A DNA stretch of 64,000 nt from an uncultured Verrucomicrobiota bacterium (GCA_964611575.1 CAZTAJ010000002.1:22582-86581); one strand, 5' to 3'; numbered from the stretch's first letter, positions 36,629-54,796 are shown. A program made the numbers and translations. The notes: a model not told the origin generated them from the sequence alone.

Positions 36629-37501
36629 TCACGGCTGGCGGCCGGCGGCAGTGCTTTCGATCTGTGCCGAGAATTTGCCTTCCGGTTCGGGTGACACCCG
36701 GATGAGCGTCCTCATCCCGCTGGCGGGGCGGCTCGCGCCCGATCCGGGGTATGACGTGAAGCGGTCCACAATGGCGGCGGCGTCCAGGGCGTTGCTGCCG
36801 ATGATAAACAGCCGGCCGGGCTGCGCGGCGCATCCCAGGATCGACAGATCCTCGAGCGAACGCACGCCGCTCACATAAAGGATTTCCGGGGCGAACATCA
36901 AGAGACTCTCCACCCCGTCCTTGATGCTGTCGCAGTCGCTGCCCACCTCGCATTGCACAATGATCGAGCTGCGGTGGGCCATGAGGTAGGTGAGGGGGTT
37001 TTCGACGATCCCCACGATGCGGCGGGAGGTCTGGTTGAGCGCATCGAGGACGGCATAGACGAGGGTGCCGATCAGCACGGGGTCCGGCCCCGACACGCCC
37101 ACGATGCCGCCCTGGTCCGACTGGGTCACCTGCCGCAGGGCGGCAATCGTGGCGGGATCATCGCACAGCGACTCCAGGGCCGGGATGACGAAGGGAATGC
37201 GGGTGACGCTTACCACCTTGCTGCCGCGTTGCGTCAGGTACGTCACGCGGATACGGCCCACCTTGCGCAGGCCGAAGGAAAAGCCGCCGAACATCGAGGT
37301 CGCGTCCAGTTCGCGTTTGGGCGACTGGGTCTTGAGCGCCTGCAGGGTATCGAAGACGTCGCCGGAACTCAGCACCATGCTGAGAATGACGCGCACTTCG
37401 CCTGCCGCATGCACGACGGGTGGGGCATTGGGCGCAAGCACCACGGTGCAGGGTTTGGCATCGCCAGACAGGTACTCCAGGATTTCCTGCGCTCGATTCA
37501 T
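36629..37501 (-). CDS. PilT/GspE-family ATPase paralog with degenerate catalytic motifs (pseudo-ATPase)
   Basis: 290 aa that aligns to the PilT core, but Walker A is replaced by GVSGPDPVLIGT (no GxxGxGKST) and the His box GHLVFGTLHT is replaced by GRLFIIGSNAL. Confidence 0.6.
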   Translation of the reverse strand: MNRAQEILEYLSGDAKPCTVVLAPNAPPVVHAAGEVRVILSMVLSSGDVFDTLQALKTQSPKRELDATSMFGGFSFGLRKVGRIRVTYLTQRGSKVVSVTRIPFVIPALESLCDDPATIAALRQVTQSDQGGIVGVSGPDPVLIGTLVYAVLDALNQTSRRIVGIVENPLTYLMAHRSSIIVQCEVGSDCDSIKDGVESLLMFAPEILYVSGVRSLEDLSILGCAAQPGRLFIIGSNALDAAAIVDRFTSYPGSGASRPASGMRTLIRVSPEPEGKFSAQIESTAAGRQP

Positions 37502-37508
37502 CTAGGTG

Positions 37509-37541
37509 TGGAGCGTGCGACCGGGTTCGAGCCGGCGACCA
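37509..37541 (-). other. tRNA 3'-end-like fragment (variable loop, T-arm, acceptor 3' strand, discriminator, encoded CCA) without a 5' half
   Basis: The minus strand reads tggtc-GCCGG-CTCGAAC-CCGGT-CGCACGC-T-CCA. No complementary 5' acceptor strand (GCGTGCG) or anticodon arm is present upstream. It lies 7 nt upstream of the PilT-like start, at the onset of the lower-GC region. Confidence 0.35.
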
Positions 37542-37859
37542 TCGGCTTTACAAATGGAGCACATTACAGCTAATGACCAATGAATAAAGGTTTTACTATC
37601 TTTGTTCGCCCAGAAGTTTGATGCTTGTTTGACGACCGCGCCGTTTTCGCCGATGATGCTCGCGTGTGATTGAGTGAGCGGTTTCGGCGTTGCTGACATG
37701 GGTCGGCTCCTATTTCTTACTCATACCTAGCACCCGCACGGAACCCACGTCAATAGAAACCGTTCGGCCCGTAAACCGGCCCGTAAACCGCTCATTGGGA
37801 GGGTCTGTCATGCCTCTCGAACCAAGGCACATGAGGCCGTACGCCGGCGCAGCCATCGC

Positions 37860-40800
37860 TCAGAGTGTTATCGGCAGACTGTCTCTGGCGCATTCAGCCT
37901 GCACAGCGCCCGGCAGGCGGAGAACCGTAGCGAAGTTATAGCCGACATCGCTGCTGGCGAGGGCGAGAATGATGTCCGGCGGTTTGGCCAGAGTTCGGAC
38001 GTCGAGTTCGCTGATCCCGGTCTTCTGAGGCCAGAGTTCGGTCTTTCCGTCTTTGAGAGCCTCCAGGGCCGCCACCAGACTCACAAGGATGGAGGCGGAT
38101 GCAATGTGGCCGGTGTTGAACGTCGTGGTGACCAGGGGCACTTCAGCGGATCGCTCGCCGAGGAGTTCGTCGACGATATCCGTGACTTTCAGGTCCACAC
38201 AGTTTCCCATGGGAGCCCAGACAATCAGTCCGATGTCTGCAGTCACGATGCCGGCGCGATCCATTGCCGATTTCACGGCGTGGCGCAGCCCATCACGGCC
38301 GAGGTTCTGGCCGGAAAACTGCTCTGCGTCCATGCTCATGCCGTAGCTCAGAATCTCCGCCAAGACGTTTGCGCCACGCTCTTTTGCGGACCCCAGAGGT
38401 TCAAGCACCAGCATCGCGGCGCCTTCTCCGAGCACTCGCTCTTGGCAGCGGTCGACTCGCAGCCGGTAATCAGCCTCTTCCTCCCCGCGGTAGAGGTAGC
38501 CGAACCGGTCGTAGTTCGCATAGGTCTGACCGTACACTTCGTCCGAAGCCCCCGCGAGAATGGCCTTGGCGCGGCCGTCTGAGATCATCTCACAAGCGTA
38601 GGCCAGACTCTGCAAGCCCGCGTGTGGACCGGGACTGAGCGACATGTTGACGCCCTTGAGGCACAGTCGCGCCGATACGTAACCGGCTGTGGAATTGGCG
38701 GTCACGGACGAAAATCCGGTGATGTCGGCCACGTGGTTGTCGCTGGTGAAAACACTGTCCATGTGCGCCATTTCTGACGCTCCGCAGCAGACGCCCATAA
38801 CAACGCCTACGTCGTCTGCGTTTTTCGGGCTGACCTTCAGGCTGGCATCTCGGAGAGCGAAACTGGATGCGGCAACGGCCAGCCTGCCGATGTCGGTCAA
38901 TCCCGAAAAGTCCAGCCGACGGTCGACTGCTGACGCTGCAAAGGCCTCGACGAGGCCCGCCAGGCGGGACTGCACATTGTCAAGCGCGAGCCTGTCGATG
39001 GGGCGCAGGCCCACCTTGCCGGCGCGCAGGGCCTGCAACGTTGTTTGTGAGGTAAGTCCCAGCGAGGTGACCAGGCCGGTGCCGGTAATGACAACGCGCT
39101 CCTCGCGGCGCGCGAGTGGCCGGATAGGAGCATCGCGGCCGGCGATGACCACCGCAGCGTTGTTGCCGCCAAAGGCGTAGTTCGCGGAAAGGAAGGCATG
39201 GTAGTTCTTGCTCCGCGCCTGGTTGGGAACATGGTCGAGGGGGCAGCCGGGGCGTGGGGAGGAGAAATTGATGGTCGGCGGGATGAATCCCTCGTTCATG
39301 GCGAACACATTGCACGTTGCTTCCAGGATTCCCGTCGCTCCCATGCAGTGCCCGAAGAACGACTTAAGCGAGACGGTCGGCAGGGGGGTATCCCCGAGAA
39401 ACCCTGCGATGCCTTTCGATTCCGCAACATCGTTGGCGGCGGTCCCTGTGCCGTGGGCGTTGATGCAGCCGAGGTCCCCTAACTCGAACCCGGAATCTCG
39501 GAGCGCATTGTGCAGGGTTCTCGACACGCCGCTCCCGCGGGGGTCGGGCGAGGTCGGATGGTAGGCGTCGGACGTCGTGGAGTTCCCTGCGATTCTTGCC
39601 GTCCAACGACCGTGTCGCAGCAGCACATGTTCCATGCTCTCCACAACCCAGAAACCGGCTCCTTCGCCGATGTTCAACCCTATGGGAAGTGAGAAGGGCG
39701 CCGTGCGCTCACTGGACATCGCTTTCAATGCGTCAAACCCGGACATATTGGCCAGGCAAAGAGCATCGGAGCCTCCGACAATCACCGTGCTGCAGCGGCC
39801 ACGGGCAATCAAATTTTGGGCCAGACCGAGCGCCCCGGTGGTTGAGGAGCAGGCTGTGGTGACGATCCATGTTTCGCCGCCCACGCCCAGCGCTCTGGCC
39901 ATGGCCTTCCCGAAACCGTAGAGTTCGGCCTGTGTGTTCAGTTTTTCGTCGGCGACCCTGGCGCTCTTTCCGTGTTTCCAGGCGTATTCCTGTTCGGCTG
40001 AGAGCAGGCCTCCGTTGCAGGTTCCGAGGACAAGGGCCACGTCACGCCGAACGGCGCCACCGGGCCAGTCAAGGCCCGAGTCCTTGATAGCCATTCTGGC
40101 TGCAGCGATCGCATAGAGAAGGTAGCGGTCATCGTACTCGGCGATTTCCGCATCGGTCAGCCATTCAAGCGGCTCGAAATCGTCGATTTGCCCGCCCAGT
40201 GACGAGCGAAAATGCGAGGTGTCAAAGCGGGTGATCGTGCGGATTCCGTGCCGGCCGTCTCTGAGCGCCTTGGTGACCGTGTCCCGGTCGTTTCCGATAG
40301 GACTGAGAATGCCGATTCCCGTGACGACCGCATGGCTATTGACGCCCTGTTTCTGTAAAGGCTTGCCTAGGATCTGGGCATTGTTCTCCCATGTTGCCGG
40401 CTCAAGGCTGGCAACGTGTTGGTCCTTCTTTAGCGCAAAGAAACCATTCCACACCTTCAGGAACTGCTCGTTGAGCTCATCAGGGGTCATGGTCTGAGGC
40501 CGGAAAACTACGTGTGCGCCATTGTAATGACTCCAATCCCGGTCGATGATCCGGTTCTGCCTCTCCATGCGTTCCCATAAAGGAGCCCCCGGGTATGGCG
40601 TGAAAATGAAGAACTCCGACGTGTGGATGTTGGCCTCGACGAAGAGCGAGAGGATGCGGTCGGCGATGCTGGTATCGTCCCAATCTCTACCCATTGCACA
40701 GGATCCGAAGAAACGGATATCCCGGTCCTCCAGTTTCTTGACGAGATCGATGAGAACCTGGCGAGCATTCTTGTCGCCCTGTAAGGCCCTGATGGAGATC

Positions 40801-41657
40801 GGGTCGACATTCATGGTGCAGTAGAAGTTCCGCACGCCGGCTTCTGCAATCAGGTCCAGGAACGAGGCATCGATGTTCAATGCCAGCGTCGAGGAAACAA
40901 AGTACTTCTTGTTGAGAGGCTTCAGTGCCGTGAAGAGTTCTCTGGCGTAGTCCTTGACCTGGCGCTGCGTGAAGAACAAGGAATCATCGGCCAGATAGAC
41001 GTTTTCATACTTGAGGGTCTTGATTTCCCGTACAACGTGCTCGACGGGACGGAAGCGCATGCGGTTGCCCATGTGCGCCGGGATCGCGCACATGGCGCAG
41101 GCGTACGAGCAGCCACGGGAGACCTGCACCAGGTCCTCATCCCAGTCGTAGGAGTCCTTGCTGTAGAAGATCTCACGTTTGGGGATGGGAAGCTTCGCAA
41201 GATCGAACCGGCATCCGCCGATGTACTTGCGTTTGAGCTGCCCCTGCCGGGCGTCCGCTAGAATGGTTTCCCATACGGGCTCGACTTCTCCCACGTTGAC
41301 GGCGTCGGCATGCTTCAAACACTCGTCAGGCATTGTGGACGGAAAGAACCCGCCCATAATGACCTGTTTGCCGTGCCGGCGAAAGCCGTCCGCGATCTCA
41401 AAGGCCCGAGTTGCCTGCGGAGTGAAACAGTTGATGGCCACCAGGTCGGTGTCGGCGGCGTAGTCAATGGCGTCGCCCCCGTTGTCGTCAATCAGTTCGA
41501 CATCGATCGACTCCGGCGTCAGGGCTGCCATGATCGGAATGCCAAGAGACGGCGGCGTCGTGAAATTGCCGAGAAAATAGCTGACCAGATCGCTATCCAG
41601 ATCCTTGCGAGATTCCAGAAACTTGGTGAATCGAGGATAGACGAAAGAAACCTTCAT
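37860..41657 (-). CDS. Tri-domain fusion: B12-binding radical SAM domain + beta-ketoacyl synthase (KS) + KS-like/chain-length-factor domain
   Basis: 1265 aa. The N-terminal 430 aa form a B12-binding domain plus a radical SAM domain (CSYACAMC = CxxxCxxC). The middle is a full KS (TTACSST active-site Cys, NAHGTGT, GHCMGATG). The C-terminal domain is a KS-fold without the canonical Cys-His-His triad, so it is CLF-like. Confidence 0.8.
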   Translation of the reverse strand: MKVSFVYPRFTKFLESRKDLDSDLVSYFLGNFTTPPSLGIPIMAALTPESIDVELIDDNGGDAIDYAADTDLVAINCFTPQATRAFEIADGFRRHGKQVIMGGFFPSTMPDECLKHADAVNVGEVEPVWETILADARQGQLKRKYIGGCRFDLAKLPIPKREIFYSKDSYDWDEDLVQVSRGCSYACAMCAIPAHMGNRMRFRPVEHVVREIKTLKYENVYLADDSLFFTQRQVKDYARELFTALKPLNKKYFVSSTLALNIDASFLDLIAEAGVRNFYCTMNVDPISIRALQGDKNARQVLIDLVKKLEDRDIRFFGSCAMGRDWDDTSIADRILSLFVEANIHTSEFFIFTPYPGAPLWERMERQNRIIDRDWSHYNGAHVVFRPQTMTPDELNEQFLKVWNGFFALKKDQHVASLEPATWENNAQILGKPLQKQGVNSHAVVTGIGILSPIGNDRDTVTKALRDGRHGIRTITRFDTSHFRSSLGGQIDDFEPLEWLTDAEIAEYDDRYLLYAIAAARMAIKDSGLDWPGGAVRRDVALVLGTCNGGLLSAEQEYAWKHGKSARVADEKLNTQAELYGFGKAMARALGVGGETWIVTTACSSTTGALGLAQNLIARGRCSTVIVGGSDALCLANMSGFDALKAMSSERTAPFSLPIGLNIGEGAGFWVVESMEHVLLRHGRWTARIAGNSTTSDAYHPTSPDPRGSGVSRTLHNALRDSGFELGDLGCINAHGTGTAANDVAESKGIAGFLGDTPLPTVSLKSFFGHCMGATGILEATCNVFAMNEGFIPPTINFSSPRPGCPLDHVPNQARSKNYHAFLSANYAFGGNNAAVVIAGRDAPIRPLARREERVVITGTGLVTSLGLTSQTTLQALRAGKVGLRPIDRLALDNVQSRLAGLVEAFAASAVDRRLDFSGLTDIGRLAVAASSFALRDASLKVSPKNADDVGVVMGVCCGASEMAHMDSVFTSDNHVADITGFSSVTANSTAGYVSARLCLKGVNMSLSPGPHAGLQSLAYACEMISDGRAKAILAGASDEVYGQTYANYDRFGYLYRGEEEADYRLRVDRCQERVLGEGAAMLVLEPLGSAKERGANVLAEILSYGMSMDAEQFSGQNLGRDGLRHAVKSAMDRAGIVTADIGLIVWAPMGNCVDLKVTDIVDELLGERSAEVPLVTTTFNTGHIASASILVSLVAALEALKDGKTELWPQKTGISELDVRTLAKPPDIILALASSDVGYNFATVLRLPGAVQAECARDSLPITL

Positions 41658-41725
41658 TGCGGCAAACGAGTATCACAAGACCCCTGGGTAGTCAATTGGG
41701 GGGAGCGGGTCAACTCCCCCTTCAC

Positions 41726-43171
41726 CTAATCCTTGGTCATTTTTCTGCCTGCCATGGCAAATCGAACGAAGTTGGCGAGATTCAGCACGAATCGCCGCCA
41801 ACTATCCGGTGAGCTCCAGAGCATGGCGAGATACCCTAGCCACACCTTGGGCCGCCGGTAATGCATCTGATAGAATCGGCCGTACAGTTGCTCGATGCGA
41901 GCCTTGGTGAACCCGGTGGGCACAAAAACGAAATGCATGCAATCCATCTGGGCCGGATCTTCATCGAAGGTCCCGAATTCCCCGATGTTCTCGTGGATTG
42001 GCGAGCCGGGAAACGGCGTGAACTTTGTCAGATTGAAGTCGTCGACCGGAAGCGAGAAAACGTACTTCATGCTGCGCTCGATGCTCTCCTCCGTTTCACC
42101 GGGTAACCCCATCATCAGCAAGCCCTTGGTCCTGATTCCCGCCTTCTTGATGTCGCGAATCCTCTGGGCCAGCAACTCAAGATCTGCGTTCTGGCGATGT
42201 TGCGACAGAAGATCAGGGTCGCCGGTTTCAATGCCCAGGCTGATCATCCAACACCCCGCCGCCTTCATTTGGCGCAACAGGTCCGGGTCAACGTGTTCGG
42301 CCCGCACGGCGCAATTGAACGTCATGCCCAGCGGTTTGTTGAGCAACAGGCTGCAGAAATCCCGGACTCTCTGCCGATGGAAGGTGAACTGGTCGTCGTA
42401 GAAGTTGACGTGGCGAATGTGCCATCGCTCCTTGAGGTAAAGCAGGTGTTCGTACAGGTACTCCGCCGAGTTAAAACGGAAGCTCTTTCGGAAGACGGAC
42501 CGGTCGCAGTAGCTGCACTCGTAAGGGCAGCCTCGACTTGAAATGCAGCTCGCGTTCGGAGCGCGCGGATAGTTAAAAATAGGCAGTTTGTAAACGTCGG
42601 GATACCCCGCCAGCTTCTCGTAGGCCGGAAAGGGAAGGCTGTCCAGATCGACTCCGTGCTGCCTGAATCCGGAGAAAGCGACCGTGTGCCCGTCGCGGTA
42701 GGTCAAGCCGGGTATGAGCCCGGGATTCGAATGACCGCTGCGCATTAACGCTTCGAGCGTTTCTTCTCCCTCGCCGACGACGGTGTAGTCGACCTCAGGG
42801 TTCTCCTCCAGGATTCGTTCGCGCAACGCCGACACATGCGGCCCGCCGAGAACCCCCTTGATTCCTGGCATCTCAACCTTGGCCAGCTTGATGATCTGCG
42901 TTGCATCGTGGAACCCGAACGTCGTGCAACCGACGCCGATGAATCCCGGTCGCCGGTCGCGTAGCAGTTCACGGATGAGCCCGCCCGAATCGGGCCACGC
43001 CACGCAATCGACGATATCCGCACGCAGCCCTTTTGATTCCAGGTAGGCGGCGATGCTGGCCATGCCCAGCGGGGGCATCAGGTTGGCGATGCGCGTGATG
43101 TCGCCACGTGCCTCTTCCGGACGATAGCCCAACGGATGAACCAGCAGAATGCGATTCTGATCAAGCGGCAT
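41726..43171 (-). CDS. B12-binding radical SAM protein (class B rSAM)
   Basis: 481 aa with an N-terminal cobalamin-binding Rossmann domain (GFIGVGCTTFGFHDATQIIKLAK) and a CPYECSYC radical SAM cluster motif. Confidence 0.85.
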   Translation of the reverse strand: MPLDQNRILLVHPLGYRPEEARGDITRIANLMPPLGMASIAAYLESKGLRADIVDCVAWPDSGGLIRELLRDRRPGFIGVGCTTFGFHDATQIIKLAKVEMPGIKGVLGGPHVSALRERILEENPEVDYTVVGEGEETLEALMRSGHSNPGLIPGLTYRDGHTVAFSGFRQHGVDLDSLPFPAYEKLAGYPDVYKLPIFNYPRAPNASCISSRGCPYECSYCDRSVFRKSFRFNSAEYLYEHLLYLKERWHIRHVNFYDDQFTFHRQRVRDFCSLLLNKPLGMTFNCAVRAEHVDPDLLRQMKAAGCWMISLGIETGDPDLLSQHRQNADLELLAQRIRDIKKAGIRTKGLLMMGLPGETEESIERSMKYVFSLPVDDFNLTKFTPFPGSPIHENIGEFGTFDEDPAQMDCMHFVFVPTGFTKARIEQLYGRFYQMHYRRPKVWLGYLAMLWSSPDSWRRFVLNLANFVRFAMAGRKMTKD

Positions 43172-44607: not shown

Positions 44608-44608
44608 C

Positions 44609-45682: not shown

Positions 45683-46649
45683 TCAGCCGGAATGCAGTCG
45701 CCAGGAATGGAGTCTGGGTGTTGATATTGGCTCCGTCACCATCAAGTTCGTTCTGATGGACGCGGCCGGAGAGGTGCGCTACGACTCGTATGCTCGCACG
45801 GAAGGCTCCCCGGTCCATGCGCTGTCTGTTGGCGCGAGACAGGTGCGGGAGCAACTCCCCAAGGGCACGGAGATCGGTGCCGTGGGCACGACGGGGAGCG
45901 GTCGGTTCCTGGCGGGCGCGTTTCTGGGCGCGGATGTCGTGAAGAACGAGATCACTGCGCATGCCGTGGGCACGCTTCATTGGCGAAACGATATTGCCAC
46001 CATTATCGAGATCGGCGGCCAGGACTCCAAGATTATCCATCTCCGCGATGGGATGGTCCGTGATTTTGCAATGAACACGGTCTGTGCAGCAGGCACAGGC
46101 GCTTTTCTCGACCAGCAGGCCTTTCGGCTCAAGATCCCCATTGACGAGTTTGGCCCCTTCTCTCTTAAGGCGGAGAGACCGTTGAGGATCGCGGGCCGAT
46201 GCTCGGTCTTCGCGGAATCCGACATGATCCACTACCAGCAGACGGGGCATGAGAAGGCCGATATCTGCATGGGGCTTTGCCAGGCACTGGTCCGAAACTA
46301 CCTTAATAACGTTGCGCGGGGGAAGGCCATCCGGGGGCCGGTGTCGTTTCAGGGTGGGGTCGCCTTCAACCCGGCCATCCTCAAGTGCTTCCGGGACGCG
46401 TTGCCTGGGCGGGAGATCGTGACCCCGCCGCATTCGACGGGTTGTGGCGCCATGGGTGCGGCCCTGCTGGCCCGCGAGGCCGTCGGCGATGGCCGAACCG
46501 CATTCCGCGGCTGGCAGGAGGGTGACTTCCGCATTAGCCAGGGAACCTGTCCGCATTGTGGCAACCAATGCAAGATCTGCAGCCTGAACGGTGAGCAAGG
46601 AGCACTTGCCCGGTGGGGCGGCCGCTGCGATCGTGGGAATGCGCTATGA
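45675..46649 (+). CDS. CoA-substrate-specific enzyme activase (BadF/BadG/BcrA/BcrD ATPase family, HgdC-like)
   Basis: It has ASKHA-fold motifs LGVDIGSVTIKFVLMD and IEIGGQDSKII, plus a conserved Cys pair for a bridging [4Fe-4S]. The ORF begins at 45540. The preferred start at 45675 overlaps the upstream stop (ATGGCTGA). Confidence 0.75.
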   Translation: MADQPECSRQEWSLGVDIGSVTIKFVLMDAAGEVRYDSYARTEGSPVHALSVGARQVREQLPKGTEIGAVGTTGSGRFLAGAFLGADVVKNEITAHAVGTLHWRNDIATIIEIGGQDSKIIHLRDGMVRDFAMNTVCAAGTGAFLDQQAFRLKIPIDEFGPFSLKAERPLRIAGRCSVFAESDMIHYQQTGHEKADICMGLCQALVRNYLNNVARGKAIRGPVSFQGGVAFNPAILKCFRDALPGREIVTPPHSTGCGAMGAALLAREAVGDGRTAFRGWQEGDFRISQGTCPHCGNQCKICSLNGEQGALARWGGRCDRGNAL

Positions 46650-48073
46650 AGAGAATCCTGCTGGTCAAACCCGATTCCGAGTTGACGGTCGTGAAGCGGC
46701 TGCGGGCCTTTCTCCATCTCGAGCCGCTGGAGCTTGAGCACCTGGCCGGAGCCGTGCCGCCGGGACATGATGTGCGCATCCTCGACATGACGGTCGAGAC
46801 ATGGCCTCTGCGGGCCCTGCGACGAACCGTCCGTTGTGACCGGCCGCACCTGGTCGGGGTGACCGCCTACAGCAACCAGCGGGCGCGGGTGGCCGCTTGC
46901 ATCCGTATCATCAGGGAGGAAGCCCCGGATGCGTTGATCGTGCTGGGCGGTCACCACGCCACCATCATGCCGCACGATTGCCGGATTCCGCACCTCGACG
47001 CGATCGTGCGTGGCGAAGGGTGCGCGACCTTCCGGAAGATGATTGAGGTGCTGGGCGCCGGTAGGGACGCGGTCCTGGCGATACCCAATGTCTACGCCCC
47101 GGATGCAGCGGATTTCGGGGAGGTGCCGCCCTATCCCGGCATCGACACTCTGCCGCTGCCCCGGCGTGATCTCGTGGATGGACGAAAGTACTTTTGCGCT
47201 TGGAGCACCCCCAACAAGGCCGCCAACGCGTCCATCCTGCCGGTGGTGGCCAGTATGCGAACGTCCTTCGGCTGCGCTTACCAGTGCAGTTTCTGCATCG
47301 TGCCGGAGCTCTGCGGCCGGAAGTACTTCCCGAGGAACATCGACAGCATTGTCGATGAGCTCGAATCGCTGGCCACCGATTACGTCTACTTCGTCGATGA
47401 CGAGACGTTTCTCTCGCCCCGCCACATGTGGGACCTGGGCAGGAAGATTCAGGAACGCGGCATCAAGAAGCATTACGTCTCCTGGGCCAGGAGCAATACC
47501 GTCACCACGAACCCGGATCTGTTCAAGTTCTGGCACGAGATCGGGCTCGACATCGTCTATGTGGGCCTGGAAAGCATCAATGATGCGACCCTCATGAGTC
47601 TCAATAAGAAGGCGACCCTCGCGCAGAACGAAGAGGCCATCCGAATCCTCCACGAGTGTGGAATCACGCTCCATCCGGCGTTCATGGTCATGCCGGAGTT
47701 CACTGCCGAGGATTTCCGAGCGCTCAATGACTACGTTCAGGCCATGCCGCCCGTGGAGGCGACGTTCACGGTCTACTCGCCGTCGCCGGGAACCGAAGAC
47801 TGGAAGAGACATGCCGACGACTTCATCTGCGATCCCATCCGGTTCTACGACTGCATGCATACGATTTTGCCCACCCGTTTGCCGTTGAAGGAGTTTTATC
47901 GGCACTTCGCGCAACTCACCGTCCGAGCCCTGAACCGGAACCCTGTGCGGGTGAACAGGACCAGGGTGAAGTTCCGGGAACTCCTGAAGATCGTGTGGAT
48001 GACGGGCCGCTATATTCGGACCCAGCGCAACATGTGGCGTGACTACCGGGGAGTTCGAGCGGGTGGTGCGTGA
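46646..48073 (+). CDS. B12-binding radical SAM protein (class B rSAM), second copy
   Basis: It has an N-terminal B12-binding domain and a CAYQCSFC radical SAM motif. Its start overlaps the activase stop (ATGA). Confidence 0.85.
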   Translation: MKRILLVKPDSELTVVKRLRAFLHLEPLELEHLAGAVPPGHDVRILDMTVETWPLRALRRTVRCDRPHLVGVTAYSNQRARVAACIRIIREEAPDALIVLGGHHATIMPHDCRIPHLDAIVRGEGCATFRKMIEVLGAGRDAVLAIPNVYAPDAADFGEVPPYPGIDTLPLPRRDLVDGRKYFCAWSTPNKAANASILPVVASMRTSFGCAYQCSFCIVPELCGRKYFPRNIDSIVDELESLATDYVYFVDDETFLSPRHMWDLGRKIQERGIKKHYVSWARSNTVTTNPDLFKFWHEIGLDIVYVGLESINDATLMSLNKKATLAQNEEAIRILHECGITLHPAFMVMPEFTAEDFRALNDYVQAMPPVEATFTVYSPSPGTEDWKRHADDFICDPIRFYDCMHTILPTRLPLKEFYRHFAQLTVRALNRNPVRVNRTRVKFRELLKIVWMTGRYIRTQRNMWRDYRGVRAGGA

Positions 48074-49086: not shown

Positions 49087-49495
49087 AGTATTCGATCCTT
49101 CTGCAAAACGTCCTCTTTGAGGCTCGCCCATCACTCTTCAGGTCAGTCCTGCCAAGCACAGTCTTGAATTGTGTTTCGATTCCACTCATTTTCTCAGGAG
49201 GAAAACGTCATACGTTACACCCCTTTCGCTTTGCTTGTTCTCGCCGCAGTGTCGAACCCATCTCGCTGAATTGCCCTATATCAAATATTCCGGGAGTGAC
49301 AAGAACATTGTTCTGGTTTTCGCATGGGGTTTTCGCTTGTCGGGCGTATCGGCGCTGTGACAGCATGGCAGTGTTGATGCTCCAACCGAGTCTTGGACTG
49401 GGCTTAGGGACGACGGCCCGATAATGGAGGCAGTTGCATGTTCCCGCTGGGTGCTGCAAAGGCGATCAAGGCGGCGCGTTCGATCATATGAATTC

Positions 49496-50947
49496 ATGAT
49501 GAATCTCGCTGACTTGCTGCAACATGCTGCCGCGCGATATCCCGAAAACATTGCGGTTTCGGATGGTGAGCGTGCGCTGACCTATGCAGAACTGTGGCAG
49601 GAGGTTTGCCGTGCCGCCGGGGAACTGGAGGCCGTGGGGATCGGTCGCGGCCGGATGGCGGGCCTTCAGTTGGGGAACAGCATTGCATTCATCATACTGA
49701 CCTATGCGTTGTGGCGCTGTGGGGCGGTGGTTGTCCCTATTCCCATGGAGATGCGGGAGTCGGAGAGAACCGAATTGCTCCGCACGATGGACTTGGCCGC
49801 CGTGTTGTCGAGTACGGCACCGGTGGGTGAGCACGCGACCGTGGCAATCGATGTCGCGGGCACAGCCATAACGGGCACCGTATTCCATAGGGGCAGCGCG
49901 CCGATCAGGGACAAGGTCAATGCCGCCATGGTGCGGTTCACATCAGGAACAACCAACGCCAACAAGGGGGTTGTGCTTTCTCACGAGGGCATACTGGAAC
50001 GCATCACGGCCGCGAACAATGCGTTGCATATTGGCCCGGGCGACACCGTAATGTGGTGCCTCCCCATGGCTCACCACTTCGTGGTTACGATCATCCAGTA
50101 CCTTTGGCAGGGGGCGAAAATCGTTCTCATCAGGAACACGGCAGGCCAACCCTTCCTTGATGCGATCATCGAGAACCGGGGCACAGTCTTGTACGCATCG
50201 CCGTTTCACTACGATGCGCTTTCACAAGACGCGTCGGGACGTGGGATCTCGTCTGTGCGCATGGCCATCTCAACGACCACGGCCCTTCCGGCCGATACGG
50301 CGCTCCGTTTCTTCGATCGGTACGGCCTGCACCTCATCCAAGCCTACGGAATCATTGAACTCGGGCTGGCTTGCGTCAATGTCGATGATCCGGCCGGCCG
50401 GCCGACATCGGTCGGGCAGCCGACCCCGGGATTCAGGTTGCGGCTTGCCAACGGAGAGCAGTACATCGGGCTTGGCGAGGGATGTGGCGAAATCGAGGTC
50501 TCCGGCCCCGGGTTCTTCGCGGCCTATTATCATCCGTGGGTTGCCGCCCGCGACGTCATGGATGGCCCGTGGTTTCACACTGGTGACGTGGGCAGAATCG
50601 ACAGCGACGGGTTCCTCTTCCTCTACAGTCGGGTCAACAGCGTCATCAATATCGCGGGAATGAAGGTTTTTCCGGAAGAAATTGAGCACGTACTGGACTC
50701 GCACGACTTCGTGAAGGAGTCGCGGGCCTACGCGGTGAAGCATGCCCACCTGGGGGAGGTCGTCCAGGCCGATGTTGTGCTGCGCCACGGCGTTGCAGCG
50801 GTGTCTGAGGATGACCTCCGAACGCATTGCGCGCAGCGACTCTCTTCTTTCAAGGTGCCGAACAGGATTCGATTCCTGGACGGCATTGACAGGACATCGA
50901 CCACCCTCAAGATCAAACGACACACAGCACCGGAGTCGGCCACTTGA
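49496..50947 (+). CDS. AMP-dependent synthetase/ligase (fatty-acyl or aryl-AMP ligase; ApeH-like starter-loading enzyme)
   Basis: It has an adenylation core A3-like motif FTSGTTNANKGVVLSH and an A8-like GWFHTGDVGRIDSDGFLFL. Start trimmed to MMNLADLL. Confidence 0.8.
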   Translation: MMNLADLLQHAAARYPENIAVSDGERALTYAELWQEVCRAAGELEAVGIGRGRMAGLQLGNSIAFIILTYALWRCGAVVVPIPMEMRESERTELLRTMDLAAVLSSTAPVGEHATVAIDVAGTAITGTVFHRGSAPIRDKVNAAMVRFTSGTTNANKGVVLSHEGILERITAANNALHIGPGDTVMWCLPMAHHFVVTIIQYLWQGAKIVLIRNTAGQPFLDAIIENRGTVLYASPFHYDALSQDASGRGISSVRMAISTTTALPADTALRFFDRYGLHLIQAYGIIELGLACVNVDDPAGRPTSVGQPTPGFRLRLANGEQYIGLGEGCGEIEVSGPGFFAAYYHPWVAARDVMDGPWFHTGDVGRIDSDGFLFLYSRVNSVINIAGMKVFPEEIEHVLDSHDFVKESRAYAVKHAHLGEVVQADVVLRHGVAAVSEDDLRTHCAQRLSSFKVPNRIRFLDGIDRTSTTLKIKRHTAPESAT

Positions 50948-51939
50948 GCGAACCGACGACAACAAGTGATGCCATTTCCTCCGTCGGCTCATCGGAGACG
51001 GTGCGGCGCGAGGCTGCGGCGGCGACCCAAGCCGCCTATCGATCATCCAAGTGGTCCGGAAAGACCAGGGGTGGATCCCTGGGCAACTGGTACTTCCTGC
51101 AAGTGATAAGGCTCCTGGGAATACGGGCGGCGTACGTTGCCCTTGTGCCCATCGCGGCATATTATCTGATTGCGAGTCCCCGGAGCGTAAAGAACTCCCG
51201 CCGTTATCTCCGGCGTGTGTTGGGGCCGAAGTCGTTCTGGCGATGGCCCTTCCTGGTATATGGTCACTTCTTCTCCTTGGGCATGAGTCTGCTTGACCGG
51301 TCCGCCATGCTGATGGGGCGCAAGGAGTTTACATGCACCTACGATGGAGAGGGCAGAATCGCGAACGCGCTTGCCTATGGGAAAGGCGTCATTCTAGTCA
51401 GCGCTCATGTCGGGAACTGGGCGGCCGGCGGGCATCTTCTCCGGCGTTTGAACACGCGCGTCAACATGGTGGCGCTGGAGAACGAGGTCAAGAGCATCCA
51501 GCGGATGTTTGACCGGGCATTTCCGGACAAGGGATTCGGGGTTCTCTCCTCCAGTCCCGATCTCACATCAAGCATGGCGATCATGGATGCCTTGCGGCGA
51601 GGGGAGATCGTGGCATTCAATGGCGACCGGACGGTTGAAGGCGCGGCCAGCGTAGAGACGACCTTTTTCGGGGACGTGGCCGATTTTCCGGTGGGTCCCT
51701 ACCTGCTGGCGTCGGTGACCGGGTCGCCGGTGATCCACGTTTTTGCCATGCGGGACGGGGTTGATCGGTATAGATTCTTCTGCTCGACAGCCAGGTTTGT
51801 CGAGAGGACTTCCAGGCAAAAGCGGCAGGAAGTGGTGAGGGCCGTTGCAGGGGGCTTTGCACACGATCTGGAAACGGTGCTCAGAAGGTATCCGTTCCAG
51901 TGGTACAATTTCTACCCGTTCTGGAAGAAGGAAACCTGA
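50944..51939 (+). CDS. Lipid A biosynthesis (LpxL/HtrB)-like lysophospholipid acyltransferase (ApeD-like)
   Basis: 331 aa in the LPLAT/HtrB family. Its start overlaps the upstream stop. Confidence 0.7.
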   Translation: MSEPTTTSDAISSVGSSETVRREAAAATQAAYRSSKWSGKTRGGSLGNWYFLQVIRLLGIRAAYVALVPIAAYYLIASPRSVKNSRRYLRRVLGPKSFWRWPFLVYGHFFSLGMSLLDRSAMLMGRKEFTCTYDGEGRIANALAYGKGVILVSAHVGNWAAGGHLLRRLNTRVNMVALENEVKSIQRMFDRAFPDKGFGVLSSSPDLTSSMAIMDALRRGEIVAFNGDRTVEGAASVETTFFGDVADFPVGPYLLASVTGSPVIHVFAMRDGVDRYRFFCSTARFVERTSRQKRQEVVRAVAGGFAHDLETVLRRYPFQWYNFYPFWKKET

Positions 51940-51972
51940 TCTCTGGCGGGCTGAACACCGAGAGGAATCCGC

Positions 51973-52395
51973 ATGGAATTGATGGACATCGAAGAGGTTA
52001 TACCGCATCGGCCGCCGATGCGGATGATCGATGCCTTGACGGAGTGGAGTGACGACTCCGCGAGCGGGGTCGTCGTCTTCGATGGAAATCACATGGCGGT
52101 GCATGACGGCCTGGTTGTTGAGTCGGCGCTTGTCGAATGCATTGCCCAGACAGTTGCCGCGATGGAGGGCGCCAAGCGGGTTGCCTGCGAAAGCCCGCGT
52201 GGTCCTGCCGGGGAGCAGGTGGGCATGCTGTGCGGGGTGTCTGATTTTGCTGTCGTCAGGCGGCCGCGAGCGGGGGATCGGTTGGAGATCCGGGTTCAAG
52301 TCCGCAAGAGGCTTGGACCGATGCTGCTTGCAGACGGCCAGGTCTTGTGTAATGGACACATCGCGGCTGCAGGATCGTTGAAACTTTCAGGCTAA
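51973..52395 (+). CDS. FabA/FabZ-like 3-hydroxyacyl-ACP dehydratase (hotdog fold)
   Basis: 140 aa. The N-terminus IPHRPPMRMID matches the FabZ-like IPHRxPxxxxD signature. Confidence 0.7.
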   Translation: MELMDIEEVIPHRPPMRMIDALTEWSDDSASGVVVFDGNHMAVHDGLVVESALVECIAQTVAAMEGAKRVACESPRGPAGEQVGMLCGVSDFAVVRRPRAGDRLEIRVQVRKRLGPMLLADGQVLCNGHIAAAGSLKLSG

Positions 52396-52413
52396 ACGCT
52401 TGGCGCAGAGCCC

Positions 52414-52908
52414 TTGGGAGACGACACAATGGGAGTCAGGAGAAAACGGAGGCGGCGCTCTATCGAGGAGGCCCGCAGCTATCTGTCCGAGGAGACGCAA
52501 GTGCGCGTGCGTTTCCATGAGGTGGATTCCATGCGTATTGTCTGGCATGGACACTATGTGACCTACTTCGAGGATGCGCGACGGGCCTTCGGACGTCGCT
52601 ACGGGCTCGACTATCCCGTCTTTCTTGAAAACAACATCGGCGCGCCGGTGGTGAGCGTGTGGGTCGATTTTCTCTCTCCGGCCTTGGGGAACGACCTGTT
52701 GGAGGTGGAGGCGCGCCTGTACAAGTCGGAAGGCGCCCAGCTCGAATTCAGCTACGAGGTGAAGCGCGCCCAAACGGGCGTTCTGCTCGCCAGCGGCGGC
52801 AGCGTGCAGGTGTTCACCACATTGAAGGGAGAATTGTTGCTGACTTGGCCGGCTCTGATGCTCGAGCGCTATGAGGCATGGAAAGACTTATGGATCCCCT
52901 CCGCTTGA
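52414..52908 (+). CDS. Acyl-CoA/acyl-ACP thioesterase (4HBT/YbgC-like hotdog)
   Basis: 164 aa with the motif FHEVDSMRIVWHGHYVTYFEDAR, typical of 4HBT thioesterases. Confidence 0.7.
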   Translation: MGDDTMGVRRKRRRRSIEEARSYLSEETQVRVRFHEVDSMRIVWHGHYVTYFEDARRAFGRRYGLDYPVFLENNIGAPVVSVWVDFLSPALGNDLLEVEARLYKSEGAQLEFSYEVKRAQTGVLLASGGSVQVFTTLKGELLLTWPALMLERYEAWKDLWIPSA

Positions 52909-54089
52909 AGGGAGCCGTGGCCGTTGCCGGCCTGGGGGTGGTGTCTGCCGCCGGAGACGGCGCCGACGCCACGTTGCTGTCCATTAAGGCAAACAGCGTG
53001 GAACTGCACGAGTGCGTCAGATATCGCGACGCCCTTTACATGACGAATCGCGTGGGGGCGGTGTCTGATCGCGTCTGGAGTTTGCTTGGCGGACCGGACG
53101 CCGGGCCCGCCGATTCCCGCACCTTTCAACTGGCGAATCGTGCGCTGGTCGAGGCGGTTCGGCAGGCGGGCCCGCAACTGGCCGATGTTGACGCCCAGCG
53201 AGTGGGCTTGGTGTTGTCCACGACCAAGGCCGAGATCGACGCGTTGGGTTCTCTCGTGGCCGGTGGCCATTGCAGTGACCGGTCGCGGCGGCATATCCTC
53301 GCGTCTCAACTCGCGGCTGACTTGGCTTCCGCCAACCACGCGTTCGGACCGCTTCAGTGTGTCTCCGTCGCCTGTATATCCGGTCTGCTGGCGATCCAGC
53401 AGGGGGTGCGGTTGATTCTTGCCGGCATCGCCGATGCGGTGCTCGTCGTTGGAGCCGACGTACTTTCGCACTTTGTCCTTGCGGGATTTAGCGCCTTGAA
53501 ATCTCTCGACCCTTGCGGATGCCGCCCCTTTGACAAGGATCGACAGGGCTTGAGCCTGGGCGAAGGCGCTGGCGCACTGGTGCTGGTTCGGTCAGATCTG
53601 GTTTCCGCTCCGCTGGCGACGATCACGGGATGGGGCGTTAGCAATGATGCCAATCATCTGACAGGTCCTTCCCGGGACGGCTCGGGACTGGCGCTCGCCA
53701 TTAAGCGAGCCTTGCGCATGGCCAACCGGACTCCCGACTCCATTGAGTATATCAACGCCCATGGAACCGGTACGGTCTACAACGACAGGATGGAAGCGCT
53801 GGCTTTCAGGACGGTCTTCGGTAGCCGCTCGCCTTGGGTCACCTCCTGCAAGGGATTGCTCGGGCACACGCTGGGAGCGGCCGGAGTTATCGAGAGCGCC
53901 ATCTGCATTCTGGCTGCCCGCGCTCAGGTCATGCCGGGGACGCCTGGATTCAGCCGTCCGGATGAGGAGGCTCCCGTTCGCGTGGCGGCCACCCCGCGGT
54001 GTTCGGTTTCCTACAGTCGAATCTTGAAGACCAACGCCGGGTTTGGCGGCACGAACAGCGCACTGGTTCTGGAGGTGCCCCCCCCATGA
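52890..54089 (+). CDS. Beta-ketoacyl-ACP synthase (KS, FabF-like; ApeO-like)
   Basis: It has the active-site Cys (SVACISGL), NAHGTGT and GHTLGAAG. The ORF starts at 52878 and is trimmed to MDPLRL. Confidence 0.85.
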   Translation: MDPLRLKGAVAVAGLGVVSAAGDGADATLLSIKANSVELHECVRYRDALYMTNRVGAVSDRVWSLLGGPDAGPADSRTFQLANRALVEAVRQAGPQLADVDAQRVGLVLSTTKAEIDALGSLVAGGHCSDRSRRHILASQLAADLASANHAFGPLQCVSVACISGLLAIQQGVRLILAGIADAVLVVGADVLSHFVLAGFSALKSLDPCGCRPFDKDRQGLSLGEGAGALVLVRSDLVSAPLATITGWGVSNDANHLTGPSRDGSGLALAIKRALRMANRTPDSIEYINAHGTGTVYNDRMEALAFRTVFGSRSPWVTSCKGLLGHTLGAAGVIESAICILAARAQVMPGTPGFSRPDEEAPVRVAATPRCSVSYSRILKTNAGFGGTNSALVLEVPPP

Positions 54090-54796
54090 CACGTGAAGTG
54101 ATTGCCGTTGCGGCCAGCTACATGACGCCCGAAGGCTACGGTAGCAGCGCCTTTGGCCGTCGTCCATGGAGGGATGGCCATGGGGAGCCGTGCGAACAAA
54201 AAGAGTTGATGGGCATACCCTGGTTGTCGCTGTTCTCGGTGCCGTGTCCTCGATTCGGCCGGATGTCCCCGCTCACCAGACTAGGTTTGATGGCGGTCGA
54301 ACTGCTCGACGTTGGCTTTGCCGATATGACTGAGGAGCAGAGGACGGACACAGGCCTCTGCATGCTCAGTCCTTTTGGGTCCATGGCGACGGACATCGAG
54401 TTCCTGAGGGAACCCGGCCCCGCCTCCTTCGCCTACACGCTGCCCAGTAGCGTGATCGGAGAGGTGTCCATACGACACCGGCTGCGGGGGCCCGGTCTGT
54501 GCCTGATGTCCGCGGGAAACACGGGGCGCAGCATTGTCGAAGAAGCATCGGAGCGGATCGCGATGGGGGAAGCCGAGTCCATGTTGTGCCTTTTCTGTGA
54601 CGCGCAGGGGGATGAGACTCGCGATCTCCTCAAGTATACACTTGATCGGGATGACAAGTTCTGCTGGTATGCCTACGCATTGTACCTTGTGCGGAAAGGC
54701 CCCGTTCCAGGCCCAGGCAAGACTGTCGCGGGAGGGGTGTTCGCATCCGGTACGGATATCTGTGGGATGTGTCTGGATCTGTGCGGGAATAAGTGA
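54086..54796 (+). CDS. Chain-length-factor-like small KS-fold protein (ApeC-like)
   Basis: About 236 aa with a KS N-terminal-like fold lacking the catalytic Cys. Its start overlaps the KS stop (ATGA), consistent with a KS/CLF heterodimer. Confidence 0.6.
   Translation: MTREVIAVAASYMTPEGYGSSAFGRRPWRDGHGEPCEQKELMGIPWLSLFSVPCPRFGRMSPLTRLGLMAVELLDVGFADMTEEQRTDTGLCMLSPFGSMATDIEFLREPGPASFAYTLPSSVIGEVSIRHRLRGPGLCLMSAGNTGRSIVEEASERIAMGEAESMLCLFCDAQGDETRDLLKYTLDRDDKFCWYAYALYLVRKGPVPGPGKTVAGGVFASGTDICGMCLDLCGNK

Follow-up and report, generated by a model that had tools for sequence, protein, structure and literature searches.

Domain architecture of the fused gene

The window analysed here, a 64,000-nt stretch of DNA from an uncultured Verrucomicrobiota bacterium (GCA_964611575.1 CAZTAJ010000002.1:22582-86581; coordinates count from its first letter), carries on its minus strand an ATG-initiated open reading frame of 1265 aa with 0 internal stops, as an earlier note on this DNA had described. 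The motifs quoted in that note were all found in the translation (CSYACAMC at aa 183-190, TTACSST with Cys603, NAHGTGT with His735 and GHCMGATG with His770), and its three domain assignments, namely radical SAM, ketosynthase (KS) and CLF-like, stand on the basis of Pfam/NCBIfam profile matches, alignments and fold comparison. The gene and its parts are as follows:

37860..41657, minus strand: radical SAM-KS-CLF-like tridomain gene (1265 aa)
41238..41657, minus strand: Rossmann (B12-binding-like) domain, aa 1-140 (Pfam PF02310, AF2 model, Foldseek)
40458..41237, minus strand: radical SAM core, aa 141-400 (Pfam PF04055, Foldseek)
41088..41111, minus strand: CX3CX2C [4Fe-4S]/SAM motif CSYACAMC, C183, C187 and C190 (alignment)
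40332..40457, minus strand: conserved structured connector from radical SAM to KS, aa 401-442 (alignment, two-domain model)
39144..40331, minus strand: active ketosynthase, FabF/Iga11-like, aa 443-838 (Pfam, alignment)
39849-39851, 39453-39455 and 39348-39350, minus strand: KS triad codons for Cys603, His735 and His770
39102..39143, minus strand: KS-to-CLF linker, aa 839-852 (alignment)
37923..39101, minus strand: degenerate KS fold (CLF-like), aa 853-1245 (alignment to FabF)

With its CX3CX2C motif and core fold, the N-terminal module is a member of the radical SAM superfamily. The Pfam Radical_SAM profile matched aa 178-323 at 37.3 bits (cut-off 29.5), Foldseek paired the core with many radical SAM structures at a probability of 1.00, and C183, C187 and C190 are conserved without exception, both in 121/121 family members and in a 59-sequence alignment of the broader radical SAM family. 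The N-terminal domain was modelled by AF2 at a pLDDT of 93.4, and its structural neighbours were AprD4 (the best, TM 0.73-0.75), TsrM, MgmA, CysS and OxsB, so that the predicted fold of the Rossmann and radical SAM module matches class-B-type enzymes. Similarity to any characterised radical SAM enzyme is marginal at the sequence level: identity to AprD4 at the structural match was 16-17%, and the best PDB sequence match was MgmA (Foldseek rank 7), at a marginal 26 bits. NCBIfam TIGR04072 (rSAM_ladder_B12, 'lipid biosynthesis B12-binding/radical SAM protein') scored 47.9 bits, below its curated cut-off of 360. The earlier note had proposed a B12-binding N-terminus; its Rossmann fold, akin to those of TsrM, OxsB, MgmA and CysS, was borne out, whereas B12 binding itself is less clear, with the Pfam B12-binding match (aa 36-127) at 30.3 bits, just under the cut-off of 32.1, and AprD4 as top structural match. 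AprD4 is a dehydratase that has a Rossmann domain and does not use cobalamin. No member of the broad family in the 59-sequence alignment departs from the GG motif at G102-G103, and the strong conservation of this motif and of the Rossmann fold is consistent with a bound cofactor.

The domain-boundary profile search advised in the earlier note placed Radical_SAM, ketoacyl-synt (aa 444-676) and Ketoacyl-synt_C (aa 687-798) in order and located the second KS-like region, matched by NCBIfam PRK06147/PRK06519 at ~aa 853-1210. Judged by sequence, aa 443-838 is a type II/FabF ketosynthase, with a thiolase fold and a Cys-His-His triad that is invariant or nearly so in the family (His735 in 120/121); Iga11, a polyene-forming KS, lies closest to it. 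Alignment of the second KS fold to FabF puts Pro1011 in place of Cys, Pro1149 in place of His and His1184 at the triad positions, and the Lys is lost, in keeping with the earlier description of this domain as catalytically degenerate and CLF-like. Across the family, Pro occupies position 1011 in 100/121 sequences (His in 16/121) and position 1149 in all 121/121, and position 1184 holds Tyr, Phe or His; the Gln that CLFs of aromatic type II PKSs carry at the active-site Cys position was not found there. The 14-aa KS-to-CLF linker keeps its length in 115/121 sequences at low conservation (0.48). The stretch joining radical SAM and KS (aa 400-443) is exactly 44 residues long in 121/121 sequences, with a mean conservation of 0.71 for the connector at aa 401-442 versus 0.77-0.81 for the catalytic domains. 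Structure prediction of this linker, likewise advised earlier, gave mean pLDDT values of 80-92 for 10-residue blocks of aa 401-440 in the AF2 two-domain model (pTM 0.85).

Integrity and distribution of the fusion

The tridomain ORF is a genuine fusion protein. The exact 1265-aa protein is present on 7 public contigs, and Logan assemblies of four runs (SRR12261224, SRR12261225, SRR21424281 and SRR21424289) are 100% identical to the window, with 0 gaps. A single tblastn HSP spans aa 1 to at least 1230 in 66 of 80 species-genome loci, and the remaining 14 are interrupted solely by contig ends, leaving an uninterrupted frame in 66/66 complete loci. The earlier note had raised the possibility of a frameshift or misassembly joining a radical SAM gene to a KS-CLF gene, and had advised checking whether homologues are fused or split. 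Split parts were found on one related contig (L003), where the radical SAM and KS-CLF proteins are separate ORFs; this, together with a GC-content step immediately downstream of the fused gene, would favour an artefact, which we nonetheless consider next to impossible. It is ruled out by the identity of four separately assembled runs to the window, by the unbroken frame in every complete locus, by the recurrence of the ~1250-aa tridomain architecture in at least 120 protein clusters (90% identity clustering), by the conserved connector of fixed length, and by the recurrence in another locus (L091) of the junction downstream of the fused gene.

The architecture is neither rare nor isolated, and constitutes a widespread database family, with relatives of the tridomain enzyme in at least 118 species genomes. 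Carriers of the uninterrupted frame are mostly Verrucomicrobiota (Victivallales, Kiritimatiellia, Opitutales), Fibrobacterota and Omnitrophota, with no Brocadiales among them; one carrier is an isolate, Puniceicoccaceae bacterium Marseille-Q1082. Their habitats are peat, lakes, sediments and guts (including human-gut Opitutales), and they are anaerobes, unable to use oxygen-dependent desaturases. The earlier note did not recognise the architecture from described systems, and our literature search agreed in finding no paper that describes a radical SAM-KS-CLF fusion.

Gene neighbourhood and related systems

Further genes in the window accompany the fused gene:

41726..43171, minus strand: standalone B12-binding radical SAM protein, 481 aa, co-directional and upstream (weak BchE/HpnJ-like matches)
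46613..48073, plus strand: divergent standalone B12-binding radical SAM protein, 486 aa (HpnR-like best match)
49424..54796, plus strand: aryl-polyene-like arm (profile matches; syntenic with locus L009)
54870-55109, plus strand: ACP (profile match)
55127-57544, plus strand: second KS-CLF didomain protein, 805 aa (profile match, alignment)

The 481-aa radical SAM gene is kept beside the fused gene in three related loci (L001, L008 and L009; 74-84% identity), and the HpnR-like match of the 486-aa protein, at 229 bits, lies below cut-off. The aryl-polyene-like arm encodes an acyl-CoA/AMP ligase, an LpxL-like acyltransferase, a FabZ-like protein, a 4HBT thioesterase, a KS (403 aa) and a degenerate KS partner (265 aa). 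The window's plus-strand genes resemble APE clusters in their AMP ligase, LpxL-like acyltransferase, 4HBT thioesterase, ApeI/ApeP-like dehydratases, KS with degenerate KS, ACP and glycosyltransferase, and the APE gene set (dehydratases, acyltransferase, thioesterase, KS/CLF and ACP) lies together at 49424-57980 by Pfam and NCBIfam. No aryl-starter enzymes were identified in this arm, and we know of no APE clusters with B12-type radical SAM enzymes.

Among 38 related loci with at least 8 kb of downstream sequence, a KS-CLF didomain lies directly downstream of the fused gene in 21, and partner genes encode ACP (29/38), a folate-type GcvT-like protein conserved in the cluster (29/38), KR (26/38), AT (24/38), TE (17/38), FabZ/ApeP-type DH (16/38) and PlsC (14/38). 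Despite these KR and DH genes, no enoyl reductase was recognisable in scans of the clusters. The ACP-GcvT-TE-KR-AT arm of the nearest syntenic relative is missing from this window, and a phytoene-desaturase-like gene is absent from the window and from 79/80 fused loci; elsewhere, members of this radical SAM family are joined to phytoene-desaturase-like proteins or encoded beside them (P0130 and L089). The gene content suggests that anaerobic PVC and FCB bacteria carry an uncharacterised lipid cluster of type II FAS/aryl-polyene-like make-up, with the fused gene as its signature enzyme. One standalone relative, at 47% identity, sits among small ORFs and not lipid genes.

Cluster I of anammox bacteria (KustE3603-3608), a putative ladderane cluster, encodes amxACP, amxFabZ, an amxFabF2/amxFabFmut heterodimer, a phytoene-desaturase-like protein and a B12 radical SAM enzyme; locus L090 encodes ACP, FabZ, FabF2, FabFmut, PDH and a B12 radical SAM enzyme. 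Like the fused enzyme, Cluster I pairs a KS whose triad is intact with a degenerate one acting as CLF (bioRxiv 10.64898/2026.05.19.726425), and like the fused loci it carries its own ACP and FabZ/ApeP-like dehydratase. The best PDB sequence match for the fused KS is amxFabF2 (9s5h_B), homologues of which all come from Brocadiales. The Cluster I radical SAM enzyme, as encoded at L090, aligned with the fused N-terminal domain at 30.5% identity over 390 aa (E 5e-56, 184 bits), compared with only 85 and 57 bits for the two standalone radical SAM proteins of the window; it ranks ~104th of 150 against family representatives and scores 87.9 bits against TIGR04072, below the cut-off of 360. The relationship is at family level, the two belonging to one broad family without being each other's closest relatives, and the system as a whole would be a fused relative of the Cluster I B12 radical SAM enzyme and FabF2/FabFmut heterodimer. 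The three parts are separate genes in Cluster I and one polypeptide here; the fused clusters mostly lack the phytoene-desaturase-like gene and add a second KS-CLF didomain, GcvT-like, KR, AT and PlsC genes. In the fused family the degenerate triad reads Pro/Pro/(Tyr, Phe or His), whereas in amxFabFmut Cys is replaced by Val or Thr and the two His by Asn, Glu or Cys. The hosts also differ, being Verrucomicrobiota, Fibrobacterota and Omnitrophota instead of anammox bacteria.

In jawsamycin biosynthesis, the radical SAM cyclopropanase Jaw5 alters the growing carrier-bound chain between elongation cycles of Jaw4 (PMC13459092). This pair is the clearest precedent for radical chemistry in each elongation cycle, although Jaw5 is a separate, unfused protein and Jaw4, unlike the enzyme described here, is a type I iterative PKS. 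Jaw5 is HemN-like (class C) and not of the Rossmann-containing class-B type. The class B enzymes CysS, TsrM, MgmA and OxsB share the Rossmann and radical SAM fold at 13-17% identity, and none is fused to a condensing enzyme; structures of CysS hold pantetheinylated substrates, which gives class-B action on carrier-tethered substrates a precedent. The ishigamide Iga11/Iga12 pair, the actinorhodin KS/CLF and the PUFA synthase PfaC, a KS-CLF didomain fused in one polypeptide, are all without a radical SAM domain. Among acyl (non-isoprenoid) lipids, modification by radical SAM enzymes is so far confined to ladderanes and jawsamycin (PMC13459092, a 2026 review).

Candidate chemistry of the radical SAM module

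We lean towards a reading in which the radical SAM module of this tridomain enzyme functionalises the ACP-bound chain between rounds of KS/CLF elongation, most likely by cobalamin-mediated C-methylation. Within one polypeptide, the active KS would pair with the degenerate KS fold as a pseudo-heterodimer, as their covalent 14-aa linkage and the PfaC precedent suggest, and the pair would add malonyl units to an acyl chain carried by the ACP that the cluster itself encodes. With the radical SAM module docked rigidly on the KS, as one AF2 pTM value would indicate, a 5'-deoxyadenosyl radical could serve to functionalise that same intermediate, ACP-tethered or KS-bound, at an unactivated carbon, in a step interleaved with elongation. 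The finished chain would then pass to a lipid acceptor via the PlsC/LpxL-type acyltransferases of the cluster. Coupling of the radical chemistry in cis to each elongation cycle, which the earlier note had envisaged, is a reasonable inference because the connector is conserved and fixed in length and the two-domain model is confident. The split form also speaks for coupling, its radical SAM stop overlapping the KS-CLF start (GTGA). Methylation is hinted at by the conserved folate-type GcvT-like gene and by the structural neighbours TsrM, MgmA and CysS, which are methylases.

Alternatively, the radical SAM domain might close rings (cyclopropane, cyclobutane or larger) on a growing, partly unsaturated ACP-bound chain after each or some elongations, resembling Jaw5 with Jaw4 and matching what has been proposed as 'type c' ladderane synthesis. 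Its physical fusion to the elongating KS, the proximity of that KS to polyene-forming Iga11 and the KR and DH genes lacking a recognisable enoyl reductase would fit such chemistry, as would its membership of one broad family with the Cluster I enzyme, which has been proposed to close rings between rounds of FabF elongation (PMC10139942; PMC13459092). We regard ring formation as quite unlikely, however, given that the phytoene-desaturase-like gene of Cluster I is missing from 79/80 loci, that the Cluster I enzyme is not the closest relative, that the conserved GcvT-like gene would be left unexplained, and that no carrier lineage is known as a ladderane producer, the products of 'ladderane' clusters outside anammox bacteria being unknown (PMC9902471).

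A cobalamin-independent or non-methylating domain, which might catalyse oxygen-free, Ted-like desaturation or, in the manner of AprD4, dehydrate or rearrange a KS-made hydroxy or keto intermediate, would agree with the sub-threshold Pfam B12 score, with the diol dehydratase AprD4 as best structural match, with the phytoene-desaturase-like proteins fused or adjacent to members of this family, and with the anaerobic lifestyle of the carriers. Lipid desaturation by a B12 radical SAM enzyme also has a precedent in the archaeal desaturase Ted (bioRxiv 10.1101/2025.10.20.683597). Against this, identity to AprD4 is just 16-17%, FabZ/FabA-type dehydratases already supply oxygen-free unsaturation in the clusters, and the conserved GG motif and Rossmann fold are in keeping with a bound cofactor, which together make desaturation or dehydration improbable. 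That the domain modifies a protein (KS/CLF, ACP or another cluster protein), or is a structural remnant not acting on lipids, is very unlikely: the best PDB sequence match is a protein glutamine methylase, MgmA, and the 47%-identical standalone relative lies amid small unknown ORFs, but the invariant CX3CX2C motif and whole-domain conservation of 0.77-0.81 argue against a remnant, and the consistent company of ACP, KS, KR, DH and AT genes and the lipid-type phytoene-desaturase-like partners of other family members also count against this reading.

The fused enzyme, for which C-methylation is our preferred chemistry, marks a lipid or polyketide pathway that is widespread and so far unexplored among anaerobes of peat, lakes, sediments and guts. 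A stronger version, which we think fairly unlikely, would have iterative radical C-C chemistry form rings or branches at unactivated carbons in lock-step with each KS elongation on one ACP-bound chain. If so, anaerobic Verrucomicrobiota and Fibrobacterota, including human-gut Opitutales, would make a new class of carbocyclic or heavily branched membrane lipids, and by Rosetta-stone logic the Cluster I radical SAM enzyme would work in a physical complex with amxFabF2/amxFabFmut. That nature has covalently joined a radical SAM domain of the Cluster I enzyme's family to a KS/CLF pair is an independent argument for joint action on the growing chain, and ladderane assembly by anammox bacteria is a long-standing open problem. 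Anammox bacteria are without a genetic system, and attempts at heterologous expression have so far not delivered the Cluster I radical SAM enzyme (PMC10139942; bioRxiv 10.64898/2026.05.19.726425); the fused enzyme is possibly a more tractable, single-polypeptide model for biochemistry.

A conserved radical SAM-ketosynthase-CLF polypeptide

The gene at 37860..41657 on the reverse strand opens with ATG and encodes 1265 aa with zero internal stops. Its domains comprise a radical SAM module, a ketosynthase (KS) and a second, degenerate KS resembling a chain length factor (CLF).

Domains of the tridomain protein
aa 36-127: B12-binding (Pfam, 30.3 bits, just below the 32.1-bit cut-off)
aa 178-323: Radical_SAM (Pfam, 37.3 bits)
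aa 444-676: ketoacyl-synt (Pfam)
aa 687-798: Ketoacyl-synt_C (Pfam)
about aa 853-1210: second KS-like region (weak NCBIfam match)

The four motifs that an earlier note had read from the sequence (CSYACAMC, TTACSST, NAHGTGT and GHCMGATG) are all present, and the second KS fold is catalytically degenerate, as that note had claimed: Pro1011, Pro1149 and His1184 occupy the FabF Cys/His/His positions, and the conserved Lys is gone. The motifs of the E. coli FabF reference used in one alignment match PDB alignments. Across a 121-sequence alignment, the CX3CX2C cysteines are invariant, as are Cys603 and His770 of the KS, with His735 retained in 120/121. Conservation extends to the degenerate positions (Pro in 100/121 at 1011, Pro in 121/121 at 1149, and Tyr, Phe or His at 1184). 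The three-domain protein is conserved, keeps its radical SAM and KS catalytic residues intact and has a degenerate second KS. The connector between the radical SAM and KS domains (aa 401-442) is likewise conserved and rigid-looking, with aa 400-443 spanning exactly 44 residues in 121/121 sequences and a conservation of 0.71 vs 0.77-0.81 in the catalytic domains; the linker joining KS and CLF is short, at 14 aa, and variable. AlphaFold2 modeled aa 1-440 with a mean pLDDT of 93.4 and pTM of 0.91, and aa 1-845 with a mean pLDDT of 86.4 and pTM of 0.85, the latter value implying, in our judgement, that the predicted relative orientation of the two ~400-aa domains is confidently fixed. Based on profile matches, conserved residues and confident models, the domain assignments therefore hold.

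The description of the N-terminal module as a radical SAM enzyme that depends on B12 stands for its radical SAM and Rossmann folds, but B12 dependence is unproven, because the Pfam match is sub-threshold, the best PDB sequence match of the module (MgmA) reaches only 26 bits, and AprD4 has a Rossmann domain and is not known to carry cobalamin. Across the broad radical SAM family, the GG motif (G102-G103) never varies, nor do further Rossmann residues, which argues in favor of a bound cofactor.

The continuous frame was borne out by independent data. The exact 1265-aa protein is present on seven contigs in public collections, and Logan assemblies of SRR12261224, SRR12261225, SRR21424281 and SRR21424289 are 100% identical to the window, gapless, over 8-14 kb. 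Among 80 related loci kept, a single tblastn alignment spans aa 1 to at least 1230 in 66, and the remaining 14 are interrupted by contig ends only. Together, the seven contigs, four assemblies and 66 uninterrupted loci rule out a frameshift or misassembly as the origin of the fusion. A 917-aa relative, P0123, was considered as a variant with radical SAM and KS only and rejected, as its CLF resumes in the next ORF, at about residue 75; a frameshift in that contig has most likely broken the tridomain gene there.

Proteins of 1229-1302 aa with the same domain set and 61-93% identity make up >120 clusters (90% identity level) in a database search, and when one genome per species was scanned, 118 proved to encode a relative of aa 1-845. 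The carrying genomes belong mainly to Verrucomicrobiota, Fibrobacterota (including Chitinivibrionales and Chitinispirillaceae) and Omnitrophota, and a few to other bins. Those in Verrucomicrobiota belong to Victivallales (88-89% identity), Kiritimatiellia and Opitutales, the last including Coraliomargarita sp. CAG:312, Candidatus Merdousia and the isolate Puniceicoccaceae bacterium Marseille-Q1082. Given these carriers, the window probably derives from a bacterium close to Victivallales. The family is neither unique nor rare, but widespread and uncharacterized, and its public annotations are generic ("radical SAM protein", "cobalamin-dependent protein", "3-oxoacyl-ACP synthase II"). The earlier note had not recognized the architecture from described systems, and we likewise found no description of a radical SAM-KS-CLF polypeptide in the literature searched. 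The family bears directly on an open biosynthetic problem.

Kinship with the anammox ladderane cluster

When aa 1-440 were searched against 1.84 billion representative proteins, 12,336 matches were obtained, 1,112 of them at E<=1e-30. At 50% identity, the fused family falls into essentially a single cluster, and the other top matches are nearly all standalone proteins of 400-500 aa. In the relative P0122 (58% identical; locus L003), the radical SAM protein has its own gene, with a TGA stop that overlaps the GTG start (GTGA) of a KS-CLF gene with 44% identity to the target. Judged from this junction, a genuine split form is plausible, not certain, with a sequencing frameshift as the alternative; the pair is probably translationally coupled. 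Another relative, P0130 (39% identical, 931 aa; L004 594-3389, L005 2828-5623), is fused to a CrtI/phytoene-desaturase-like domain and adjoins an ACP, an LpxL-like acyltransferase and a second desaturase-like gene, and is a second fusion tying this radical SAM family to components of anammox Cluster I, the "ladderane" gene cluster. P0126 (44% identical) also adjoins a desaturase-like gene. The neighbors of P0124 (47% identical) are other radical SAM genes and small ORFs of no assigned function, so the radical SAM family is not exclusively lipid-linked.

The best PDB sequence match of the target KS is 9s5h_B, identified as amxFabF2 from its close homologs, which are all Brocadiales (Kuenenia, Jettenia, Scalindua and Brocadia); amxFabF2 is part of a heterodimer (bioRxiv 10.64898/2026.05.19.726425). 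A specifically amxFabFmut-like character of the CLF-like domain was not supported: taken alone, the domain scores higher to ordinary FabFs (116 bits) than to 9s5h_C (105 bits), and an earlier score of 152 bits was a sum over several stretches. The corresponding anammox locus, L090, encodes an ACP, FabZ, FabF2, FabFmut, a phytoene-desaturase-like protein and a 486-aa B12 radical SAM enzyme. The latter matches the N-terminal module of the target with 30.5% identity over 390 aa (E 5e-56, 184 bits), vs only 85 and 57 bits for the two standalone radical SAM proteins of the window. That 184-bit score would rank ~104th among the enzyme's scores to 150 family representatives. By sequence comparison, the anammox enzyme belongs to the same broad family as the target, and is not the closest relative of the fused clade. 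Neither protein is a member of TIGR04072.

Among radical SAM plus KS/CLF lipid systems, of which anammox Cluster I is the type example, the target represents a fused version. Three Cluster I proteins, encoded separately in the anammox cluster, have their counterparts in one chain in the target; a fourth, the phytoene-desaturase-like protein, has its counterpart joined to a sister branch of the same radical SAM family. Even so, these pathways are clearly not the same; the phytoene-desaturase-like partner is absent in 79/80 fused loci and in the window. Genome mining has yielded clusters of unknown function that the software labels "ladderane", in Verrucomicrobiota, Fibrobacterota and Omnitrophota, among others (PMC9902471).

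Conserved partners and proposed chemistry

The fused gene is set within a dedicated ACP/KR/DH/AT/acyltransferase cluster. Its most frequent partners were counted in the 38 related loci that extend >=8 kb downstream of it.

Partners in 38 related loci
Second KS-CLF didomain, directly downstream of the fused gene: 21/38
ACP: 29/38
GcvT-like protein (128 bits to GcvT, below cut-off): 29/38
KR: 26/38
AT: 24/38
Thioesterase: 17/38
FabZ/ApeP-type dehydratase: 16/38
PlsC: 14/38
FMN-reductase/SCP2 protein: 14/38

The GcvT-like gene, of the folate-binding aminomethyltransferase family, comes straight after the ACP gene (loci L001, L002, L009 and others; 29/38).

We propose that the KS and CLF-like domains would pair intramolecularly, as in PfaC, and extend an ACP-bound chain, and that the docked radical SAM module would act between elongation steps on the same tethered intermediate. 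Among the structural matches, CysS structures show that class-B enzymes can take pantetheinylated substrates, and in Jaw5/Jaw4 radical SAM chemistry is interleaved with iterative elongation (PMC13459092). The reaction could instead be the formation of C-C rings, along the lines of the "type c" proposal for ladderanes (PMC10139942), oxygen-free desaturation, for which Ted is a precedent (bioRxiv 10.1101/2025.10.20.683597), or an AprD4-like dehydration. C-methylation at an unactivated carbon is ranked ahead of these as the most likely chemistry, because structural neighbors are methylases and the clusters conserve the folate-type GcvT-like gene, whose product might supply one-carbon units. A radical SAM domain that is vestigial or modifies proteins is unlikely.

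Gene neighborhood and downstream junction

The cluster in the window has three KS/degenerate-KS pairs in total, the target among them, and the (+) arm resembles an aryl-polyene cluster.

Features around the target in the window
41726-43171 (-): standalone B12-type radical SAM gene, preceding the target on the same strand
43432-46649 (+): two DUF2229/HGD-like genes (DUF2229 protein, 391 aa; DUF2229/HGD-D-like protein, 357 aa) and a BcrAD/BadFG-type acyl-CoA dehydratase activase (TIGR00241, 170 bits), between the divergent B12-type radical SAM genes
(+), divergent from the target: second B12-type radical SAM gene, HpnR-like, below cut-off
(-), inside the divergent arm: outer-membrane beta-barrel gene
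(+), divergent arm: acyl-CoA ligase, LpxL-like acyltransferase, FabZ-like protein, 4HBT thioesterase
(+), further along: KS and truncated degenerate KS, ACP (54870-55109), KS-CLF didomain (805 aa), ApeI-like dehydratase
(+), beyond these: glycosyltransferase, alpha/beta-hydrolase-radical SAM-SPASM fusion, PlsC-like acyltransferase

Besides the target, the pairs are a 403-aa KS overlapping its 265-aa truncated degenerate partner, and the 805-aa didomain, which the ACP precedes; both lie within 52878-57544 (+). The DUF2229/activase trio would be an ATP-driven low-potential electron-transfer module, and could serve this cluster variant as a dedicated reductant system or ketyl-radical dehydratase. 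The insert is identical across the four run assemblies, and is missing in L001 and in L009, a Victivallales MAG locus that is the nearest long-flanked syntenic relative and matches window 37910-55746.

Downstream of the fused gene, L009 carries an ACP-GcvT-TE-KR-AT-FMNred-DH-PlsC arm that is missing in the window, where unrelated genes take its place: T2SSE-like, AraC, URO-D-like, peptidase, homocysteine methyltransferase-MTHFR fusion and MetH. GC is 0.63-0.73 beyond the junction, 0.55-0.62 in the cluster and 0.53 in the intergenic stretch just after the target. A chimeric contig at this GC step (~37.5-37.86 kb) was rejected, as the Logan contigs L091 and L092 carry the same junction. Independently assembled contigs from two other runs (L093/L094) stop exactly at window 37644, and the junction is therefore real and possibly strain-variable. 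This suggests a rearrangement or strain-variable junction at ~37500-37860, with part of the pathway elsewhere or lost. The target ORF itself ends normally, since C-terminal tails differ across the family.

An Rfam scan of the window found no riboswitches (e.g., cobalamin), and a promoter/terminator scan around the target performed no better than on shuffled sequence. The stretch 27908-33519 (+) encodes MetH, a full-length methionine synthase of the cobalamin-dependent type (1194 aa), and after it the homocysteine S-methyltransferase-MTHFR fusion (625 aa); the host evidently draws on cobalamin and on folate one-carbon metabolism. A second unusual fusion, at 59865-61451 (+), joins an N-terminal alpha/beta-hydrolase domain to radical SAM/SPASM (528 aa); its top NCBIfam matches are metalloenzyme-maturase-type radical SAM families, all below cut-off, and it was found in only 2/45 related loci. 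A 1526-aa ORF at 8717-13297 (-), with no Pfam match, is rich in Ala/Arg/Glu/Gln with long internal coiled-coil-type repeats, and lies within the highest-GC region (0.68-0.71), which shows strong negative AT skew.
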